Below are positions 3,483 through 62,250 of a stretch of 64,000 nucleotides of DNA, piece by piece. Position 1 is the stretch's first letter. Every line of letters starts with the position of its first letter. The notes under the pieces were generated by a model. It was given only the letters and a program-made list of their open reading frames with translations, had not been told where the DNA came from and searched no databases. The stretch is from Macrostomum lignano (Eukaryota): NCBI GenBank assembly GCA_002269645.1, contig NIVC01002065.1, positions 143,744 to 207,743 of the forward strand. The letters are read 5' to 3'. Both the position numbers and the translations under genes were made by a program.

Positions 3483-3777
3483 TCACAGGTAAGTATTCTC
3501 TCCATTTGCATTTACTTTGTTTGCTTTCAACGGCGGGACTGTCACTCGCGCAATCGGCGACCTCGATTGCCATGCGGCCGATTCTGATTGGCTACCGGCG
3601 GCAAACTGCGGTGCCCTGCTTGGCTCGCTGCCGACGTTCGCTGACGCAGACTGGTAGCTGAATACTGGGTTGCGGGTGTGCAGCATCTGGTCGTGGCTCG
3701 CCTGGGCCACGTCACGCCAAATGTCTGTCGGCAGGGGTGCCCGCTGGTGATGATGCTGCATCAGCTGCTGGGCCAGA

Positions 3778-3817
<40 letters not shown>

Positions 3818-5273
3818 TTGGCGGCATCTCCGCACTCGCCAGGCTGTAGACGCTGCCAGTGCGATTGCCTCTGAAGCCTTGCTGCTGCTGTTGCTGCTGA
3901 TGGTTGCGGGACTCACCGGGCCGATCGAATGTGCTATCTCGGACAGACGAACGGCGGACAATGCCGGACTTTCTGGTGCCCCCGCTGTCGCTGCTGTTGT
4001 TGTTGAAGCCGAACGCCTTGCTCAGACTGGCCGTCATTCGTTTCCAACTGTCGCCGAACCGTTTTGAGCGACTCTTCTGTCGGTAGCGATCGTCGTAAGC
4101 CTTCTCCATCTGCTCCTGCAGCTGTTCCTCTGTCTGTGGCCTGTCGTAGGCGAAGATCGGCTCCTCCCACTGCTCCTGATAAGGCTCGCGGACAACCGGC
4201 GGGCCGCCGCCTCGCCTGTATCGAGCGTTTGGAGGAGCTGGGGCGGGGCCCTTGAAGCGCCTAGGCTGGAGCGGACTCCGGTAGTGCCCGTTACCAACGC
4301 CAACTGAGCTCATTTCCAACTCGGAAGAGAATCGCGTCAATTGGCGCGGCGGCTGCTCCGCTGCCGGTGTGGCTGACTCATCCTCCGAATAGTCTGGCTC
4401 GAGCAGGCTGCCTTCCATGAAGTCTGTCGGTGCCTGAAGCGGATGTTGGCCAAGCAGTTGTTGACGAATCTCTGCGATGAGTTTTTTCTTCTCAGCATCG
4501 CCGATTTTGGCTCCGGAGACGGCCCCCTCTGCTGATGCGATCGCTTGCTGCTGCTGCGATGGGCTTGACGAGTGGCTCAGCAAGTCCCGGAGAATCTCCT
4601 GCTTTATTTCCTCCTTCAGTGTTTCAGTTGAGTCCGCTTTCGACAGACCTCTACGCAATGTGTCGTCTCGCTCCTCCAACTCCTCTGTAACAGTTGGTAG
4701 CTCCTGCTTGCTCGGGTCATACAATCTACCTTCGTTTGGGTCGACGTCAACTACCCTGTTCTTCTCCTTCTTTTCTGCCAGCGCGAATACATATTCTCGC
4801 ATGCGGGACACCCTGCTGTCTTCCATCGGCTCAGCAGCTGCATCTTTCTCGCTGTTTAATCCGCCATCTACCGCAGACGGCGGCGCTGGTGCCGGTGGCT
4901 TTTGCGTGCGGGCAGGCCGTCGCGCCTGACCGTTGGCCTGCAGCGATTCCGCTACAGCCTGTCGCTGCAGGCCTCCGTTGAGGTTGTTCACTTGCTGCGA
5001 AAGACGCGTCAAGCCACCGCCGGTTGCTGCAGACTGGCTGTGTGTTTCGCCACCGCCGGCACTGCTACGCAAAATCGAATGATTAAACCGCAGTGCGTCC
5101 TCTGTCTGGTCGCGGAATACGACGTTACGCCGATTTTTCTCATCGTTCAGATGACCGCCGCCACCCGCCGCATTTCGTAGTATTGGACGCGGAGTGCTCG
5201 GCGCGCTGGGCCCTACGTCTGTCGAGGCCGGATCGGCTGTTCCGTCCGGAGAACCGCTCTGTTCGTTACCCAT
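3483..5273 (-). CDS. Intronless ~596-aa low-complexity/disordered protein with polyQ tracts, N-terminal MGNEQS and C-terminal ENTYL; function unknown
   Basis: Long GC-rich ORF with gene-like codon use; first ATG at 5273; no recognisable globular domain. Confidence 0.75.
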
Positions 5274-6116
5274 CCTGAGCTGCTGCACGAAAACTGCAGC
5301 CTAGTGCTGGATCCTTCGGCTGGCCCTGCTTGTACCTTTTAGTTTCTCAATTCTTTTGCCGATTTCGCCGAGTGAACCTATGCTGCTGAACGAGTGCGCG
5401 GCGCTGCGCCTATAATTTTCTCTTTCTTATACACGCCTCAAAATACTTCGGCTTTCCTCCAACGAAAGAGGCGTAGGTGGAAAGAGAGTCGGGGTTGGCC
5501 TGACCTAAAAATATATCATTACACATACCCAGTTGGCCTCCAGCTGCTTGCTTAGGCCGAAAGCAAGCGAGTATTCAGAATATTTAACTACCATCTACCC
5601 TCGGAGCTTAAACTTTGGGCAAGCCTTGGTCATATAGCTGCGCTCTGAGTCTATTGTTCTTTATCTGTGCGCAAACCTCAATTGCATTGCTCTTGCAGCA
5701 TTCTATTCATCAAAATTGTGAGACTTGAGCCCCCACCCCCCGAGCATCTGCCTGGGGAGGGTTACATTGTCTTGGCAGAAATTGTGGCATTCATGAGTAA
5801 CCCATACTTTCTTTTCTGTAAAAAGTTGCAGCCTGTCGACGAAGAAAGAGATCGAACAATATAGCACTAGCAGCACTTGTGCACTTACGAGGTATACCCC
5901 GAATGGATAGGCTTTTGAGAACAAGTGCATTTTGGTTTGATGGTTTGATTGCTTGAACTTGTCTTTTGAAAAAAGAGCTACTAAATATGTTAACACGTAT
6001 GTAAGAGCGCTACAAGTTCAAGTTGTTATACACTCGTATAATCTATTATTGCTTTAAAATGTTTCCTTCTTGACGATGTAGAAAATCTGTGGGAAACATG
6101 TATTGCTCTTGACAGT

Positions 6117-51638: not shown

Positions 51639-52502
51639 TGTAGAGTGTTCTACCTCCCGTTAAAAAAGGAAAAAAGAAGATAATCGTATAATACTACTAT
51701 AAGTAAGTAAGTACACGCATGTGCGCCTAAGCTTTGAATGAATCACGCTACCAGAAAAAGATGTTACCAGAATAATACGCCATGAGCCATTTTCCCCTTT
51801 TAGCGCAACACGTGAATTGTCATGATACTATTTTGGATCAAAAACTTGTCTATAAATACAAGCGATCTGAAGCGGTACCGGAGCCATTCTCCCCACGGAA
51901 GAGGAGCGCTCCGAAGAGGAAGCCTTAGGAGGACTTCCTGATCTACCAAGTCAATCGAGACTCGGTCGAGTTGTTGCGGTAAGCCTTCCTTATTTGCGCC
52001 CGTTGTGTTAGAGACGTCTCGCTCAAGTCTATTGAGACTTGAGTCTAATTGAGTCTGTTGAGACTCTTGAGTCTGTTTAGACTCCATTGGTTGCAGTCTC
52101 CAGAAGGACTGCCCCTGATAGATCTTAGAGGACTATCAGTGGTTTCCGGAGCTATACCTAGAGTGCATAGAGGCACTGCTAGAAGAAGGAGGCTTAATTT
52201 AGACCGCAGTTTGGCGCAGGGTACCCATTGTTGCTACGAGGCCTCTGATTGGTCCTGACGGAAGATACCGGCCGGAAGAACTTATCGGAAGTACAAGAGG
52301 AACCAGGACCAGAGCAACTGAAGAATCAAGGCGCCTGATCTACGAGATCTACTGACAAGTTCCTAGCGAGAACTACTCAAGAAATTCAAATCCGGATTAA
52401 AGGTAATTGAATACCTTCGTTTGACTTACTGGGTTGCCTAGCTGTTGAGCTAGAAGTGATTGTTCCTTGATTATCGAAAGTCGGGTAATAAGGAACACAT
52501 CA
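51639..52502 (+). repeat. 5' LTR (864 bp), TATAAATA at 51851-51858
   Basis: Starts TGTAGAG, ends ACATCA; matches 61388-62250 except one visible 1-bp indel. Confidence 0.96.
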
Positions 52503-53216: not shown

Positions 53217-54923
53217 ATGGCGCGGCGCAATCCAACGGTACACAGAGACATCAAAGAAACGGTCGGTACTTTCTCGATGGAGAAAGATTTTAACACATTT
53301 GTCGACCATTTTGACCTGGTATGTAGGGAATACAACCTACAAAATCCAGAGAAGGCACAGCTGCTGCCACCTCTTCTCCAAGGTACTGCGCGAGAAATTT
53401 ACGGCAAGCTGGATGCGGCAACACAGCAAAATTATCCAGCACTAATCATTCAACTGCGCGCGCATTTCAACCGTTGCGGCACAAACAGATCAGTGCTGCT
53501 GCACAAGTTGCATAACAGAAGGATGCAAGCAACAGAATCCTTCCTCGCCTTTGTGGACGATATCCGCCAGATAATTAAGGCACTGCATCAGCCACCGCTG
53601 CAAGCTGCGGACCAACCACCACTGGGAGCGGCAGAATTGGCCGCCAGAGAAAGACAACGATTGATGGATCGTGAACAAAACCTCATCCTGCACGTAATAA
53701 ACAACGCACAGCCGTCACTTCGGGATAGACTTTTGCGTGAAAATATCGAAACCGAAGAAGACCTTTTGCGTTGCGGAATGCAATGGGAAGCCAGTGCCCC
53801 ATTAATGACGACAGGCAACAATGAAGTGCAGAAACTGACGCAGCAACTAAACAAGTTAATGCAGCACCAGACAGCTGCTATCGCCGAACAAAAAAGACGA
53901 AATGAACAAGCCTCAGCCAGATGTTACTACTGCGGACAAGAAGGACATTATCAGATTAATTGTCCTCATTGGTCAACAAGATACGACAAGCCGCGACAGA
54001 TATTCAACAATCAGAAGCCGCAGAAACCATGGCAGCAATATCAAAATCGCCAACAACAAGGCATAAGACGCTTCGGAAATGATAGACGCTTCGGAAATAA
54101 TGACCGCTCCGGAAATGATGGCCGCTTCGGAAACGAAGGCCGCTTCAGAAGTAATGGCTACAGGCCACGCAACGTCAGATACACACAAAGACAGCCGACG
54201 CAAGCAATGCCACGATACGCGAATGCCATCACGTACACACCGGAAAATGAACAGCAAGAACAGCAAGTGTTCACAATTGACGACTTGGAAATGGACTTCA
54301 CAGTCCCGGAACTTGACATCAGCTTGATCGAAAAGAAGACGACGCACGAGGACAACACTGACAACACAGAAGAGACGAATGAAACCGAAATGATCAAATT
54401 AAAAGAGACCACCGGAGACAGCAGAGAAAACAGGAAGAAAGTAAATCACAAGACAAGGGAGGAGGCGGAGAGCGACATCGGCAACGAAGAAAAGATGAAA
54501 ACCGGCGAAGAAAACAACTATGAATCGACAACAGTGGATGACGACAAAACGAGCATGAAAGACAAAGAAATGAAAGAAGAAGAAGAATGTAGAAGTTACG
54601 GCAACGACCACGACTGCGAGGTGCGTGATGACACGAACGACTACCAAGCCGAAAGAGGAATGCAGGAAGAACCGAGAGCGGAGAATCTAAGTTCCGACAG
54701 CGATCAAGGCTACGAAATACAATGGAAAGATGAAGAAATGGAAAAAGAACAGGTGAAAGAAAAGCCGAGTTCCGACAGCGACGAATGCTACGAGATCCGA
54801 TACAAACGAAATGGTGAAGCCTATATTCAAACGGTCGACTACAAGACAGAGAAAAGATACCAAACGCAATGGAGTGAAACAACGGAAACATCGGAAGAAG
54901 CGCAGACGAAGATAATGAAATAA
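53217..54923 (+). CDS. gag: Gag (capsid-like, CCHC knuckle, long acidic C-terminal extension)
   Basis: F..FVDHFDL..LLQGTAREIY..LRAHF..LHNRRMQATESFLAFVDDI; CYYCGQEGHYQINC at ~53922-53963. Confidence 0.92.
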   Translation: MARRNPTVHRDIKETVGTFSMEKDFNTFVDHFDLVCREYNLQNPEKAQLLPPLLQGTAREIYGKLDAATQQNYPALIIQLRAHFNRCGTNRSVLLHKLHNRRMQATESFLAFVDDIRQIIKALHQPPLQAADQPPLGAAELAARERQRLMDREQNLILHVINNAQPSLRDRLLRENIETEEDLLRCGMQWEASAPLMTTGNNEVQKLTQQLNKLMQHQTAAIAEQKRRNEQASARCYYCGQEGHYQINCPHWSTRYDKPRQIFNNQKPQKPWQQYQNRQQQGIRRFGNDRRFGNNDRSGNDGRFGNEGRFRSNGYRPRNVRYTQRQPTQAMPRYANAITYTPENEQQEQQVFTIDDLEMDFTVPELDISLIEKKTTHEDNTDNTEETNETEMIKLKETTGDSRENRKKVNHKTREEAESDIGNEEKMKTGEENNYESTTVDDDKTSMKDKEMKEEEECRSYGNDHDCEVRDDTNDYQAERGMQEEPRAENLSSDSDQGYEIQWKDEEMEKEQVKEKPSSDSDECYEIRYKRNGEAYIQTVDYKTEKRYQTQWSETTETSEEAQTKIMK

Positions 54924-54967
54924 CCAAAAAGCAAAGCGAATCAGAAGCCTTCCGCCTGGATCAGCCA

Positions 54968-57900
54968 ATGGAACAACCGAAAGAATATGATGCGGACATG
55001 GAAGATAACGAATGGCGATCGCAGCCAATGCCAGCAAGGACAACGGCAAAATCCAAGAAGTGGAAAAACTGGCTATTCTGGATCATCGTGATACTACTGA
55101 TAGCAGTAGTCGCCAAAGCAACGGCAACGGAAAAGCCAATGATTTGTCCAACGGATGCGCATATCCAACCGATGATCTACAAGATACCAACCGACATCAA
55201 ATGCAGTTACTTCAAGACAAACCAGACAAAACCAAAGAAGATTACACTCGATCTCTACAAGGCTAACATCAAGAAGCATCGACAACACGGGATAGTATGC
55301 TTCAGAGACAAGCACCTGGTGGAAAAAGTTTGGCGCGGACAATGGAACCGGATCCGATTTAAACAACATGAGCTACATGTGTCGCACGCGGAATGCCTAC
55401 AATGGAATCAAACACTATTTTCAAAGGATGGTGAACTGGAACCAGATGAGAAGGTCGGCAACGCACAGCTGTTCAGAACAAAGAATTCAGCCAACGGTCG
55501 ATATATTCACTTCTTCGGAAAATGGAAAGAATATATGGCACGCAACAGCTACTTGATCAGAAATATTCCATTCTACTACAATCCGTACGAGAAAATGGAA
55601 TCGTTACAGCTGCAACTAAGCGAATGTCGATACAGTGAAGGATGGTGTCCAACGCCGATTCTACGGAAGGAAGAACTACACAGTCTACCACTGAGTCCAA
55701 CATATCATCAAGACTATCGATGGCAGATTGAGCACAGAGCACAATCACACTATGAGGAACCGTACAAATCACGACAATACTTCTTCGCGTGGGAAGTTGA
55801 GCCGGAAATTGACTGCAAGCTTCAAAAGTATCACACAGTTGAAGGAGGACTACTGTCAAATACGTTTTTGGCAAAGTCAGGAGACTTGGCACTGACGTTT
55901 CAAAAGAAACCAGTCGAGCAAAAACTGAAATGCAAGGATACAGACAAGACACTATTCATCTCGGAACAAGAGATACCAGTCTACGTAAAGGATGAAGACA
56001 AACAAACCTTCTTGGCAATCATCAATGGAACGTATCAGCAACAAGAAAAACAGAATAGAAGACGACGTGACATCGAACGTCCCAAACTGGTGTCAAACCG
56101 GCTGTTGTCAGCAAAGATAACGGCTTTGGATCACAATCTACACAACCAGTTAAACCACTTGCATCGAACACTGGTCCAGCTAACTTGCAAAATGCACGCA
56201 ATCAACTTAAATTATGCCAGACAAAACTACTATGTCAACCCTACGATGACTTTTCGTAAAATCACCGGAATGACGAACGTTTTGGCAGTTCCAATATACG
56301 AGCATCTGTTGATATACAAGTGCACGCCGATACAGCACTTTAACATCTTGCCGTCAAACACGTCAACAACCTGCTACGATAAGCCAAGGATTGAAGCGTT
56401 CTACGAAGGAAAACGAATTCAGGGATTCTTGGACACGGTACACAACATCATCGTTGGCACCGCAATACCGAGACCTTGCACCACGGCAGTAAACTACTAT
56501 CAACTGGACAATGCACTACACGTCATCAAAACAACTGGAACGACAGCAAACGTCACAGAACCGGAAGTAATCGTCGACGAAAACTACGACATGGAGGATT
56601 TGAAAATCCGATTCAACAGAACGAAGTATACGCCATTCGCCGATATCCAACTTGACGAGATAACACCAGGATGGACGATCAACGACTTCTTGCAAGCGTT
56701 CATCACCCAACGCAAGATGATTCACCAGCTGTTCACAAGAAAGGACAAAGGAACCGGGACAGGAAGATTTCCCGTCCTTGTTTCAATGGACAGCGCCATC
56801 AAATCATTTTGGACAAATAGCTTCTGGGAGCTGCTCAATGGAAGAGGCAGTCTCTATCAAGGATTCATCTTCTACGGTGCTTGCATTGTGTGGATTGTCA
56901 CGGCAATCTTCATCATTTCATCGATCGTACGGTGCTTCAGTCAAACTTGTCCAAGAGCTAAGAAGACAGTGAATGCCATAATGCAAAGAACGACAACGGA
57001 AAGCGACAACAGTTTAGAACTAACAGAAACTGCACATTGTGAGGTTCAAGGGCAACCGACACTAGCAACGCGGCTATATCCATCGATTCCGACAACACCA
57101 ACGGCACCAAGGATACAACCACCCAACTATCAAGCAGAACAGCACGAGCCAAAATGGCCGGAAAACTACGTCTGTACGCTACACGCCGAGATTGGCAAAG
57201 CAATGGCTCAGGTCATTGTCAACAACTTGCCATGTCGAGCACTACTGGATTCAGGCAGCTCGATCACAGTCATCTCGCAACAATTATGCAACAAGCTACG
57301 ACTCGCGGTACGACCAGCAGCAATCGCAGTTGCAGGAGCAGGAGGACATTCACTCAACATCCTAGGAAAAGCAGATATCGACTTGAAAATTGCTAATAAA
57401 CAGCTGACGGTCCCGACGTACATCATCGACAGACTACCAAACCAAGACGTCATCGTTGGAATCGACACGTTCAAGCAGCTTCAACTACCATTGACCTTCG
57501 ACTTCAACAAGCAAACGTTTAGGATCGACACGGTGGAGCAACCGCTGATCAACCAGATTCGAGTACTACCGAAAGTAACTCTGCAGCAAGATGTCATTAT
57601 CCAGCCTGAAAGCGCATGCTGGGTCAGAGCGAAAACGACCAGCGCGGCAGATGAAGCAATGATATTTGATCCACACAGGAGAGTCACGGCAAAACATCAA
57701 ATCATGATGCCTACGGCACTAGTGCTGGTTGCAAAGGATAAGCAACTGCCAGTACAAATCTTCAACCCGAACACAGAAACGGTTCATCTACGACAAGGAA
57801 TGTGCATCGGTCATCTCAACACCCAAGCATCGGTTATGCTGATTGAACAAGCGACTCCACGACTAACAGAGGAAGAATTTCAAAAGAAGATCAATTTGGA

Positions 57901-60712
57901 TGACAGCCCGATTACGGAACAGCAAAAGAGGAAAGTTCGACAGCTGTTGTGGAAGTACAACGAAGCCTTCTGCCATCATGATTACGACATCGGACGAGCC
58001 AAGGACATCAAACAGGAAATCAAACTTCTGCCGCACACGGAACCAATTCAGTGCAAGCCGTACCCGATCGCCAAGCATCTGCAACAACACTTTGACGAAA
58101 TCATCGATAAAATGCTAAAGCACGGCATCATCAGCAAAGCTATTTCGGCTTACTCCTCACCGTGCCTACTGGTACAGAAGAAGGAGACAAACGAAAGACG
58201 ACTCGTATGCGACTTCAGACTGTTGAACAAGTACATACCGACGGATCAGCAAAGCCTACCGAAGATCTCCGAACTACTAGCAAAGCTCAACACGGCAAAA
58301 TTGTTCACGGTGTTCGACCTACGTCATGGATTTTGGCAAATTGAAATCGAGAAAGAGTCACGACAGTACACGGCTTTCAAAACCTACAATGGACAAGTAT
58401 ACGAGTACAATCGATCGCCGATGGGACTTAGCAACAGCCCAGCAACGATGAGTCGACTAACAGCATACATGCTAGCAGGATGCACGAACCTGCTGCACTA
58501 TGTCGACGACATTTTAGCCTACGGAGAGGATTTCGAGCGACTCTACGAAGCTACGGAGAAGGCCCTAGCGCTCATTCAACGCCAAGGTCTGAAGCTACAA
58601 CCAACTAAATGCAAATTCTTCCGAGACAACGTGCGTTACCTGGGACATCAGGTGACAGCCAAAGGAATCTCACCGGACCCAGACAACGTGGAAAAGGTGA
58701 AGAAGTTTCCTACGCCAACCAGTATAACGAAGGTCCAATCATTCCTTGGACTTGCGCAATACTTCAGGAAGTTCTTACCTAACTTCGCAAAGACAGCAAA
58801 GCCACTGTACGACCTGCTCAAGTTCGACAAATGGAAGCAAGACAACTGGACACAGAGACAACAGGAAAGTTTCGACGAAATCAAACGACAGCTGACATCA
58901 GACGCACTGCTACAGCATCCGGACTTCGACAAGCCCTTCATCATCGAGACAGACGCCTCAGGAACGGGACTCGGAGCAGTCCTACTACAGGAAACCGAGG
59001 ACAAGAAGGAACGACCTATTGCTTACGTCAGTCGAGCACTCAAACCAAATGAGACAAAGTGGTCAGCTACGGAACGAGAGCTACTAGGAGTCTTGTTCGC
59101 CCTGCGACAGTTTCATTACTACATCTATGGTTCTCCAATACAGACGATAGTACGCACGGATCATGCACCATTGACCTACGTCGTAACTACAAAAGGACAG
59201 ACCAACAACCGACTCATCAGAATGACACTCAAGATCCAGGATTACAACTACAAACTCGTCTACAAACCAGGAATTACCAACAAAGCCGCGGACGCCCTGT
59301 CAAGAGCCTATGAAGTCAACGCCATTCATCCAATCCCTAACATCAAGGAGTTGGTGGATGAAACCGAGCGCGACAACTTCTACCAAGCGGTTAAAGACGA
59401 CGACAAGAACATCAAACTCAGTCCCATGGAACGAAAATTCCTACGCAAGCAACGACAACACCTAACAATCAATAAGTCACGGCTCTACTGGATGAGCGAC
59501 AATAAACCCAAGATCTACATACCATATTCGTTTCGGCAAGCAATTCTCAACGAGCTACACGACAACCCACTCGCTGGACACCTGTCGGCAGCAAAGACCA
59601 TCGCGAGAGTGGAACAATACTACTTTTGGCCAACTATGTACGGCGACATCAAGCAGTATTGCAACAACTGCCATTCATGTGCTGCATCAAAGACAGGACG
59701 ACGACAGAAACCGCAGCTACAGTCCATTCCGAAGTCGACTACAATGGACTGTCTAAGCATCGACATCACCGGACCGCTACCACCGAGCTGTCTCCAGGGC
59801 ATCGCCTACACCTACATTCTAACCGCCTTGGATATCTTCTCGAAGTTTGCTATCGCCATACCGATACCGGACATCACAGCTCAGACAGTGGCAATGAGTT
59901 TCTTCAACGAAATCATTTGCAAGTACGGCACGCCGAAGAACCTCACATCGGACAACGGATCGCAGTTTACATCGCAACTGTTTCAGCAAGTCGTAAGGAT
60001 TCTCAACATTACGCAGATCTACACATCGACCTACAATCCGAAGGCAAACATGGTTGAACGGTTTCACCGCAACCTGCACGAGATGATTACACATTTCGCG
60101 CACCAACAGCCGGAAGACTGGATCATCTACCTGCAATCTGTAACAATGGCCTACAACAGCGCTATTCATCGATCAACGGACAATACGCCATTCTTCCTAA
60201 TGTTTGGACGAGACTTCCAACCGCCGAATCTGCTCGCACAGCAATTGCTACCATCGCAGTACGTGGAAGTACCGACTTCCATTCAGAAATTCGTCACGCA
60301 ACTACACCTCGCATGGAAGATCGCCAAGCACAACATTGACAACCAGGTGGCTCTGACCACCGGCAACGACGCGAGATCGACAACCCTGACGGCCGGCGAC
60401 ATCGTCTACCTACACTACCCGCCACAGCAGACGCATAAACATGCACAGAAGTACAAAGGACCCTATCGAGTGGTCCAACTAACGTCACCAACAACGGCAC
60501 GCCTGGCTAATGTACAAGATCCACATCAGCACCAGTTCTACGTACACATTCATCGACTAAAGAAGATCAACACTGACACAGCGACGTTTCTACCGACATT
60601 AGACAACGCTGATCGCACGCGTTCAACGAACCGCCACATCGCGACGAAGCACGAGGAGACTCAAACGACAGATGTGAGCCAGCCACATGGCTACAACCTA
60701 CGACCACGCTAG
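54968..60712 (+). CDS. pol: Env-Pol fusion polyprotein, 1914 aa: Env-like glycoprotein then protease, RT, RNase H, integrase
   Basis: LLDSGS (57245), LRHGFWQI, YVDD (58499-58510), ETDASGTGLGAVL, HHCC + DITGP..DNGSQF..ERFHRNL, GPY; N-terminal ~660 aa has two hydrophobic segments and 12 ectodomain Cys. Confidence 0.95.
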   Translation: MEQPKEYDADMEDNEWRSQPMPARTTAKSKKWKNWLFWIIVILLIAVVAKATATEKPMICPTDAHIQPMIYKIPTDIKCSYFKTNQTKPKKITLDLYKANIKKHRQHGIVCFRDKHLVEKVWRGQWNRIRFKQHELHVSHAECLQWNQTLFSKDGELEPDEKVGNAQLFRTKNSANGRYIHFFGKWKEYMARNSYLIRNIPFYYNPYEKMESLQLQLSECRYSEGWCPTPILRKEELHSLPLSPTYHQDYRWQIEHRAQSHYEEPYKSRQYFFAWEVEPEIDCKLQKYHTVEGGLLSNTFLAKSGDLALTFQKKPVEQKLKCKDTDKTLFISEQEIPVYVKDEDKQTFLAIINGTYQQQEKQNRRRRDIERPKLVSNRLLSAKITALDHNLHNQLNHLHRTLVQLTCKMHAINLNYARQNYYVNPTMTFRKITGMTNVLAVPIYEHLLIYKCTPIQHFNILPSNTSTTCYDKPRIEAFYEGKRIQGFLDTVHNIIVGTAIPRPCTTAVNYYQLDNALHVIKTTGTTANVTEPEVIVDENYDMEDLKIRFNRTKYTPFADIQLDEITPGWTINDFLQAFITQRKMIHQLFTRKDKGTGTGRFPVLVSMDSAIKSFWTNSFWELLNGRGSLYQGFIFYGACIVWIVTAIFIISSIVRCFSQTCPRAKKTVNAIMQRTTTESDNSLELTETAHCEVQGQPTLATRLYPSIPTTPTAPRIQPPNYQAEQHEPKWPENYVCTLHAEIGKAMAQVIVNNLPCRALLDSGSSITVISQQLCNKLRLAVRPAAIAVAGAGGHSLNILGKADIDLKIANKQLTVPTYIIDRLPNQDVIVGIDTFKQLQLPLTFDFNKQTFRIDTVEQPLINQIRVLPKVTLQQDVIIQPESACWVRAKTTSAADEAMIFDPHRRVTAKHQIMMPTALVLVAKDKQLPVQIFNPNTETVHLRQGMCIGHLNTQASVMLIEQATPRLTEEEFQKKINLDDSPITEQQKRKVRQLLWKYNEAFCHHDYDIGRAKDIKQEIKLLPHTEPIQCKPYPIAKHLQQHFDEIIDKMLKHGIISKAISAYSSPCLLVQKKETNERRLVCDFRLLNKYIPTDQQSLPKISELLAKLNTAKLFTVFDLRHGFWQIEIEKESRQYTAFKTYNGQVYEYNRSPMGLSNSPATMSRLTAYMLAGCTNLLHYVDDILAYGEDFERLYEATEKALALIQRQGLKLQPTKCKFFRDNVRYLGHQVTAKGISPDPDNVEKVKKFPTPTSITKVQSFLGLAQYFRKFLPNFAKTAKPLYDLLKFDKWKQDNWTQRQQESFDEIKRQLTSDALLQHPDFDKPFIIETDASGTGLGAVLLQETEDKKERPIAYVSRALKPNETKWSATERELLGVLFALRQFHYYIYGSPIQTIVRTDHAPLTYVVTTKGQTNNRLIRMTLKIQDYNYKLVYKPGITNKAADALSRAYEVNAIHPIPNIKELVDETERDNFYQAVKDDDKNIKLSPMERKFLRKQRQHLTINKSRLYWMSDNKPKIYIPYSFRQAILNELHDNPLAGHLSAAKTIARVEQYYFWPTMYGDIKQYCNNCHSCAASKTGRRQKPQLQSIPKSTTMDCLSIDITGPLPPSCLQGIAYTYILTALDIFSKFAIAIPIPDITAQTVAMSFFNEIICKYGTPKNLTSDNGSQFTSQLFQQVVRILNITQIYTSTYNPKANMVERFHRNLHEMITHFAHQQPEDWIIYLQSVTMAYNSAIHRSTDNTPFFLMFGRDFQPPNLLAQQLLPSQYVEVPTSIQKFVTQLHLAWKIAKHNIDNQVALTTGNDARSTTLTAGDIVYLHYPPQQTHKHAQKYKGPYRVVQLTSPTTARLANVQDPHQHQFYVHIHRLKKINTDTATFLPTLDNADRTRSTNRHIATKHEETQTTDVSQPHGYNLRPR
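55070..56940 (+). other. env: Env-like (gB/class III fusogen-like) segment of the polyprotein
   Basis: Signal anchor WLFWIIVILLIAVVAKA, furin RRRR (56057-56068), six N-glycosylation sequons, TM GFIFYGACIVWIVTAIFIISSIV. Confidence 0.85.
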
Positions 60713-60832: not shown

Positions 60833-61207
60833 ATGGGCAACGCACTGTCAAAACAGGCGCCCCAGCCTCAGCAGCTATATGACTGCCCGATATGTTTAAC
60901 TGATGACTTGGCTGTCAAGCCACCGACTATTTGCATCAACGAACATAAAGTTTGCGGACAATGTTTAAGCGATTCACATTATATTCAGCCATGGCAGAAT
61001 TGTCCCCTCTGTAGAGATAGTTTGCGACAATGTGCCTATTGTTATTCTTGGCGCACGTTTCAATATTGTAACCACCAACATTTTATTTGCATGCACTGTT
61101 TGAAGCAAACCGCTAGTAGGGGCGTTATAGGATGCCCCTTATGTAATAGTATGCCGCGAGACTGCACGTTTCGAAAGTGGTGTCGGATCAAACCTGATGC
61201 CACTTGA
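60833..61207 (+). CDS. Accessory ORF3: 124-aa double RING-finger protein with N-myristoylation motif
   Basis: MGNALSK; C-x2-C-x12-C-x3-H-x2-C-x2-C-x12-C-x2-C followed by C-x2-C-x8-C-x3-H-x2-C-x2-C-x11-C-x2-C. Confidence 0.82.
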   Translation: MGNALSKQAPQPQQLYDCPICLTDDLAVKPPTICINEHKVCGQCLSDSHYIQPWQNCPLCRDSLRQCAYCYSWRTFQYCNHQHFICMHCLKQTASRGVIGCPLCNSMPRDCTFRKWCRIKPDAT

Positions 61208-61387: not shown

Positions 61388-62250
61388 TGTAGAGTGTTCT
61401 ACCTCCCGTTAAAAAAGGAAAAAAGAAGATAATCGTATAATACTACTATAAGTAAGTAAGTACACGCATGTGCGCCTAAGCTTTGAATGAATCACGCTAC
61501 CAGAAAAAGATGTTACCAGAATAATACGCCATGAGCCATTTTCCCCTTTTAGCGCAACACGTGAATTGTCATGATACTATTTTGGATCAAAAACTTGTCT
61601 ATAAATACAAGCGATCTGAAGCGGTACCGGAGCCATTCTCCCCACGGAAGAGGAGCGCTCCGAAGAGGAAGCCTTAGGAGGACTTCCTGATCTACCAAGT
61701 CAATCGAGACTCGGTCGAGTTGTTGCGGTAAGCCTTCCTTATTTGCGCCGTTGTGTTAGAGACGTCTCGCTCAAGTCTATTGAGACTTGAGTCTAATTGA
61801 GTCTGTTGAGACTCTTGAGTCTGTTTAGACTCCATTGGTTGCAGTCTCCAGAAGGACTGCCCCTGATAGATCTTAGAGGACTATCAGTGGTTTCCGGAGC
61901 TATACCTAGAGTGCATAGAGGCACTGCTAGAAGAAGGAGGCTTAATTTAGACCGCAGTTTGGCGCAGGGTACCCATTGTTGCTACGAGGCCTCTGATTGG
62001 TCCTGACGGAAGATACCGGCCGGAAGAACTTATCGGAAGTACAAGAGGAACCAGGACCAGAGCAACTGAAGAATCAAGGCGCCTGATCTACGAGATCTAC
62101 TGACAAGTTCCTAGCGAGAACTACTCAAGAAATTCAAATCCGGATTAAAGGTAATTGAATACCTTCGTTTGACTTACTGGGTTGCCTAGCTGTTGAGCTA
62201 GAAGTGATTGTTCCTTGATTATCGAAAGTCGGGTAATAAGGAACACATCA
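61388..62250 (+). repeat. 3' LTR (863 bp)
   Basis: Near-identical to the 5' LTR. Confidence 0.96.

Follow-up and report, generated by a model that had tools for sequence, protein, structure and literature searches.

The Gag-Env-Pol retroelement described here, from the flatworm Macrostomum lignano, carries matches to all three classes of viral late-domain motif on what is predicted to be the cytosolic tail of its Env protein, and we read these motifs, with a probability of roughly 0.6, as candidate ESCRT late domains of an enveloped retroelement. The element lies within a stretch of 64,000 nucleotides (contig NIVC01002065.1, positions 143,744 to 207,743 of the forward strand), which is referred to as the window and to which all coordinates refer. 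Nucleotides 57074-57130 (+) translate to LYPSIPTTPTAPRIQPPNY, which corresponds to residues 733-751 of the frame 54878-60712 and is located 49 residues past the second hydrophobic segment of Env and upstream of the protease. The features of the element are as follows.

51639..52502, plus strand: 5' LTR, with TG...CA ends, the target-site duplication CTAC and a primer-binding site immediately downstream
53217..54923, plus strand: Gag, with a capsid region, one CCHC knuckle and an acidic spacer
55070..55120, plus strand: TM1 (residues 65-81), a predicted internal signal anchor between the Gag spacer and Env, from hydropathy
55130..56860, plus strand: Env ectodomain, a predicted class III (herpes gB-like) fusion protein, from Pfam and a structure model
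56861..56929, plus strand: TM2 (residues 662-684), the predicted Env membrane anchor, from hydropathy
56930..57181, plus strand: cytosolic linker, the predicted Env tail of about 84 residues, from topology and a probable cleavage site
57074..57088, plus strand: LYPSI, an ALIX-type (LYPxL-like) motif, from consensus match and haplotype conservation
57098..57109, plus strand: PTAP, a TSG101-UEV-type motif, from exact match and conservation in haplotypes and lineages
57119..57130, plus strand: PPNY, a canonical PPxY motif of NEDD4/WW type, from exact match, with P, P and Y constant in haplotypes
57182..60712, plus strand: Pol, comprising protease, RT, RNase H and integrase, from Pfam
60833..61207, plus strand: extra ORF of 124 residues that begins with Met-Gly and has two RING-like units of Cys/His type (weak Pfam RING matches, E 0.003-0.02, below cut-off)
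61388..62250, plus strand: 3' LTR, which differs from the 5' LTR by 0 mismatches and 1 gap column

The LTR ends, the target-site duplication, the primer-binding site and the order of the Pol domains are those of a Ty3/gypsy LTR retrotransposon, and the absence of mismatches between the LTRs, together with the CTAC duplication, indicates a recent insertion. Within Pol, the RT motif YVDD is found at 58499-58510, and the protease matches Pfam Asp_protease_2 at residues 778-863 with its catalytic LLDSG at 789-793. Env is placed between Gag and Pol, with its ectodomain held between two hydrophobic segments, in this element and in all seven of the Env-bearing lineages compared (7/7). The ectodomain contains a furin-type site, RRRR, at 56057-56068 (residues 394-397), and its fold is predicted to be class III and gB-like on the basis of a Pfam Monjiviricetes_fusion match (E 3.7e-5, below cut-off) and of a structure model (pLDDT 59.5, pTM 0.36), which Foldseek matches to HSV-1 gB with E 1.3e-19 but a TM-score of only about 0.2. 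In the window copy, Gag and the Env-Pol frame (54878-60712, 1944 residues) occupy two frames that overlap at 54878-54923. Gag-Env-Pol is normally a single polyprotein, since many other copies of the family (up to 2538 residues) and several lineages (about 2460-2870 residues) have one open frame, and the two-frame state of the window copy is a copy-specific break or an assembly error. Elsewhere in the window are a frame with RT and RNase H of the non-LTR kind (3-2051, +) and an antisense frame of 605 residues with no Pfam match (3483-5300, -).

A search of the organism's own genome with the element gave 141 matches, 16 of them full-length at 100%, and a word-indexed homologue search returned two proteins only, both of this element's family, one of them 99% identical and labelled Macrostomum lignano in UniRef. 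GAG-ENV-POL elements with a gB-type Env have been described in nematodes, bryozoans and flatworms by Chary and Hayashi (eLife, PMC13524379, cited here from the portions available), so that the element family and its gene order are already known. Among their entries, Platyhelminthes_Rhabditophora_Mlig_errantivirus_2 from M. lignano, with an LTR of about 863 nucleotides and 16 copies, agrees with the window element in species, gB-type Env, Gag-Env-Pol order, LTR length and copy number, and its primer-binding site as given there, GCGAGATCACCA, is the reverse complement of that in the window. The window element very probably belongs to this family. In the accessible part of PMC13524379, the terms late domain, ESCRT, budding, cytoplasmic and RING do not occur in the main text, nor late domain, ESCRT and PTAP in seven supplements, and a 2012 review, in the excerpt available, describes ESCRT use by errantiviruses as unknown. 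Our literature search found no report of late domains in these Env tails, although Sacco et al. 2022, on nematode Gag-Env-Pol elements, may mention some. The motif cluster is real and apparently unreported, and what is new is its location on the Env tail.

A sequence-only reading of the window had proposed that three late-domain classes cluster within 19 residues, after the membrane anchor of Env and before the protease, and the translation and coordinates confirm this. PTAP and PPNY are exact matches to their consensus, and the ALIX-type motif is, as that reading had said, imperfect, being LYPSI with I for L; lineage D, one of the relatives described below, has LYPTL. Its further statement, that PTAP and PPxY are not evident in this Gag, also holds, in that neither P[TS]AP nor PPxY was found in the Gag frame of the window copy, which does hold one YPAL (residue 113, capsid region). 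Scanned in all six frames (127,996 residues), the window matches the three patterns 9, 12 and 9 times, and nowhere but at 57074-57130 do all three classes occur together in one frame. When the 77-residue tail was shuffled, any single motif arose in 2-3% of 20,000 shuffles, PTAP and YPx[LI] jointly in 355 of 1,000,000, and all three motifs in 8 of 1,000,000. The patterns were picked after the sequence had been seen, and conservation, rather than these odds, is therefore the real test.

Conservation within the family (lineage A) was assessed from 50 of the nearest matches, which represent 33 distinct DNA haplotypes, and variants were counted if present in at least two haplotypes. The 10 core motif residues show no shared amino-acid variants and five shared synonymous ones, in a tail in which 25 of 78 sites vary; the corresponding naive P of 0.015 is optimistic, as the haplotypes are related. 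In the LYPSI motif, Y, P, S and I are present in 33/33 haplotypes and the first residue is L or M. PTAP is found in 32 of the 33, the remaining haplotype having PPAP, and in PPxY the residues P, P and Y are constant while the free position is N, T, G or I.

The comparison was extended to seven Env-bearing lineages of the same genome (A-G), which fall into three clades with RT sequences 32-45% identical between clades; the lineages share kinship, and counts by lineage are not independent. The tail of lineage A reads LYPSI..PTAP..PPNY, and that of B has PTAP-x4-IYP[KR]I, with PNAP in one of six loci. Lineages C and E have PSAP and no YP motif in the tail, the PSAP of E being absent from one degenerate copy (L068). 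Lineage D has PSAP..LYPTL, lineage G has PSAP-x4-IYPTI, and in lineage F, which has PPAP-x4-LYPKI, PPAP replaces P[TS]AP. By lineage, then, P[TS]AP is found in 6/7 tails, [LIM]YPx[LI] in 5/7 and PPxY in 1/7. The P[TS]AP and YPx[LI] pair recurs in A, B, D and G, with the order in A reversed relative to the other three. An unbiased count of 4-mers in the tails places PTAP (with S taken as T) as the most widely common, in six lineages, the next being in four, and an unbiased count of gapped 5-mers places LYP.L and T.LYP jointly at the top, in five lineages. Some of the classes that a tail lacks are present on the Gag side of Env instead: lineage B has PPPY or PPAY 26-67 residues before TM1, lineage C has PPRY and YPPI downstream of the knuckles, and lineage D has a second PSAP.

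Judged irrespective of position, the motifs are conserved against a divergent background, in the case of PPxY only within lineage A and among the distant tails described below. The sequence-only reading had proposed conservation of the motifs against a divergent linker as a check, and at the level of the three clades both P[TS]AP and YPx[LI] bear this out, as do all three motifs inside the family. The cluster of three in 19 residues is specific to lineage A, but the group as a whole carries candidate motifs of late-domain type near Env.

As a control, 20 loci without an Env match were taken by score group from 150 protease matches, and these represent 14 families at 80% protease identity. In none of the 14 families (0/14; 20 loci, with open stretches of at least 100 residues) was a motif found within 130 residues before the protease. 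The difference between Env-bearing and Env-less elements corresponds to a Fisher value of 8.6e-6 by lineage and 0.0015 by clade, although the control is imperfect because the junction differs, with the nucleocapsid directly before the protease. Two of the 14 families have PTAP or PPxY farther upstream in the Gag frame, and one Env-less locus has PTAP repeats far upstream in a different frame.

More distant Env tails were collected with a profile of eight Env segments, which matched 434 proteins at E of 0.001 or below. From the best 150 of these 434, and after leaving out 10 identifiers (own proteins and closest matches), proteins with no detectable anchor and tails of fewer than 40 residues, 60 tails were kept, of which 30 are followed by a protease. 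P[TS]AP occurs in 6 of the 60 (shuffle mean 0.56), a hydrophobic residue followed by YPx[LI] in 7 (0.31) and PPxY in 8 (1.05), and none of 2000 shuffles reached any of these three counts, whereas six permuted control motifs occur 0-3 times each, none significantly. In these proteins the density of motifs is 9-13 per 10,000 residues in tails versus 0.6-1.5 elsewhere. A majority of the distant tails (43/60) have none of the three classes, 17 carry at least one, and only four have two classes; P[TS]AP alone is not enriched among the 30 protease-linked tails (1 versus 0.24 expected, reached by 435 of 2000 shuffles). Taken as a whole, the motifs look selected rather than fortuitous, and their association with Env suggests that particles of these elements may bud from cells. 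The late-domain reading as first put forward is partly supported, by the conservation and by the lack of motifs at this place in Env-less families, and is limited in that the triple cluster is confined to one lineage and PPxY to one tail in seven. A separate observation concerns a close relative of 313 residues (P0009), in which PTAP and PPxY overlap, as PTAPPTY, directly before a W-P pair and the protease; overlapping late domains of this sort occur in some RNA-virus matrix proteins.

The pairings of P[TS]AP with TSG101, YPxL with ALIX and PPxY with NEDD4 are established (PMC6874086, PMC2958808, in the parts available). The host genome encodes a TSG101 UEV domain (6.7e-39, in three places), an ALIX V domain and HECT domains, the last scored alone, without their WW architecture. 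With numbering taken from the alignment to human TSG101, the host UEV keeps Y68, N69, I70, P139 and S143 of the PTAP pocket and differs at two pocket residues, Y63 being replaced by H and F142 by V. The last proline is described as fitting into a pocket made of Y63, Y68, I70, P139, F142 and S143 (10.1101/2024.11.15.623737, excerpt), and binding of PTAP by the host UEV is plausible but may be altered. A predicted complex between the host UEV and tail residues 724-760 gave a score of 0.26 (mark 0.34) on a scale uncalibrated for peptides, and is given no weight either way. The PSAP of Hrs was not found in frame at three host loci, and probably lies in another exon.

Several lineages differ in other parts of the element. 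In lineages A and B, one or two ORFs follow pol, each with two RING-like units and up to 222 residues long (L087, L051-L053, L055, L074). The first of these in lineage A starts with MGNALS, which we take to be a possible myristoylation signal, and those of lineage B start differently. With these RING-like ORFs the elements may encode ubiquitin ligases or membrane adaptors of their own. Lineages F and G have an extra post-pol ORF of 253-260 residues, and in lineage C such an ORF reaches at most 295 residues (L069-L073, L057, L060); the frames covering the extra ORFs of F and G gave no convincing Pfam match. In lineages C, D and E (L058, L066, L067), Env has a Thr-rich, mucin-like insertion of about 200-280 residues in the region of the furin site.

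In the mechanism that we propose, a single Gag-Env-Pol polyprotein would be threaded through the membrane by TM1, acting as a signal anchor, and by TM2. From hydropathy, Gag would be cytosolic, TM1 would send Env to the lumenal side and TM2 would return the chain, so that the tail and Pol would be cytosolic. Gag starts with MARR, without Met-Gly, and as it thus lacks a myristoylation glycine, it is likely to be tethered to the membrane through its covalent bond with TM1. Many membrane-held tails would then recruit TSG101 through PTAP, ALIX through LYPSI and a NEDD4-type ligase through PPNY, and ESCRT-III/VPS4 would cut the neck, be it at the plasma membrane or in budding into endosomes. Afterwards the protease would release Pol, probably after VCTL, leaving the 84-residue tail with its motifs on Env. 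The motifs appear to shift between the two cytosolic segments flanking Env, namely the end of Gag and the Env tail, as interchangeable late domains would.

The limits given for the linker are the end of TM2 and the probable N-terminal junction of the protease after VCTL, with a conserved W-P pair inside. Junction-like motifs follow the nucleocapsid (YANAI, YAQAI, VNSI, IAEV), precede the integrase (VNAI, VNTL) and lie 21-29 residues upstream of the catalytic Asp (VCTL, VATV, VAAI, NTVL), and we infer that the protease cuts at the last of these positions. The W-P pair (window 57152-57169) precedes the catalytic Asp by 30-37 residues and occurs in 7/7 lineages and in several distant relatives. 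The implied 1:1:1 ratio of Gag, Env and Pol is unusual and counts against the budding model. Across lineages, no slippery heptamer keeps its position. None of the listed datasets that contain the element is annotated as RNA, and in contigs of four presumed RNA runs covering the element no joint skips Env or the motif; contigs drop rare forms, and this result therefore says nothing about expression or splicing. In an automated gene model of the family (P0003), the piece of the tail that is missing is precisely the one with the motifs, which is probably an artefact, because large parts of Env and RT are also dropped and the contigs run unbroken through the motif.

Three other explanations of the motifs bear on this model. 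The first, which is the main rival, is that they bind ESCRT and NEDD4 factors in order to sort, internalize or degrade Env rather than to cut a neck, for instance in endosome or exosome loading or to limit the amount of fusogen at the surface. PPxY and PSAP serve sorting on the tails of cellular membrane proteins, and the motifs here lie on just such a tail. The conservation data fit sorting or turnover equally, most of the distant tails lack the motifs, ubiquitin is attached to the cytosolic portion of the foamy virus Env leader (PMC7828637, in part), and Drosophila ZAM has been reported on endosomal and exosomal routes (PMC3383448, in part). We nevertheless consider this explanation unlikely, though deserving of serious attention, as the pairing of P[TS]AP with YPx[LI] recurs in A, B, D and G, motifs occur on the Gag side too, in the manner of viral late domains, and neither P[TS]AP nor PPxY occurs within the lineage A Gag itself. 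If budding goes into multivesicular bodies, the sorting and budding readings overlap.

A second explanation takes the conserved Y-P as a site for the element's own protease, with PTAP and PPxY binding SH3 or WW domains and having no role in ESCRT recruitment. Cleavage between an aromatic residue and proline is a type known from retroviral proteases, and a common [ST]-x-[LIM]-Y-P is found in 5/7 lineages, shortly upstream of the protease and near the conserved W-P. The other probable junctions of these elements, however, are of the form hydrophobic-x-small-I/L/V (YANAI, VNAI, VCTL/VATV/VAAI), and the L or I at +3 after YP is kept in 5/5 lineages with the motif. The absence of the YP motif from the tails of C and E means that Y-P is not an obligatory cut, and the position of PTAP as the top 4-mer is left unexplained, all of which makes this a distinctly improbable account. 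Least probable, and strongly disfavoured, is that the motifs arose by chance in a disordered linker rich in proline or are inherited without selection, for although the lineage tails contain 13-23% proline, a single motif arises in 2-12% of their shuffles and the patterns were chosen post hoc, such an origin sits poorly with the joint odds of 8e-6 in lineage A, the reappearance of motifs in three clades in an altered order, a core with synonymous but no shared amino-acid changes, and permuted motifs at background.

With budding as the preferred reading, conserved late-domain motifs linked to Env would provide sequence evidence, independent of the envelope itself, for release in membranes, and they point to three host factors in a worm some of whose copies were inserted recently. 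A broader proposal, which we hold tentatively and at somewhat less than even odds, is that in Gag-Env-Pol errantiviruses of flatworms and other invertebrates a threaded polyprotein tethers an unmyristoylated Gag via a signal anchor and recruits ESCRT by the Env tail, a design that would be undescribed for retroelements, and that the three motif classes may have been gained and reshuffled repeatedly in Ty3/gypsy lineages of invertebrates and independently of the vertebrate retroviruses.

Known viral systems resemble this arrangement in part. Bornavirus late domains were considered as a precedent for a class III glycoprotein and were rejected, since they are located in P and not in G (PMC5834213, in the part available). 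In MLV, Gag carries PSAP, LYPAL and PPPY as late domains (PMC8402826, PMC4848597, excerpts), and, as in the window element, three motif classes are thus present in one viral polyprotein. The MLV motifs, however, lie in Gag (MA and p12), which buds without Env, whereas those of the window element come after the Env anchor and within 19 residues. The p6 region of HIV-1 Gag sits between the nucleocapsid and protease coding regions. It contains PTAP followed by YPXnL (PMC8402826, excerpt), and so resembles the window element in having PTAP and a YP motif in a linker, with the PTAP-then-YP order of lineages B, D and G. It differs in that the window element has the whole of Env between the nucleocapsid and the motifs, which lie in the Pol frame. 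In foamy viruses a PSAP late domain is located in Gag. Release of foamy virus particles depends on Env, which has a long cytosolic segment in the particle (PMC7828637, in part). Foamy virus Env is nevertheless a separate protein, whereas in the window element Gag and Env form one polyprotein and Env is predicted to be of class III. If the budding reading is true, late domains on the tail of a class III fusogen within a Gag-Env-Pol polyprotein would widen the range of known designs for enveloped retroelements.
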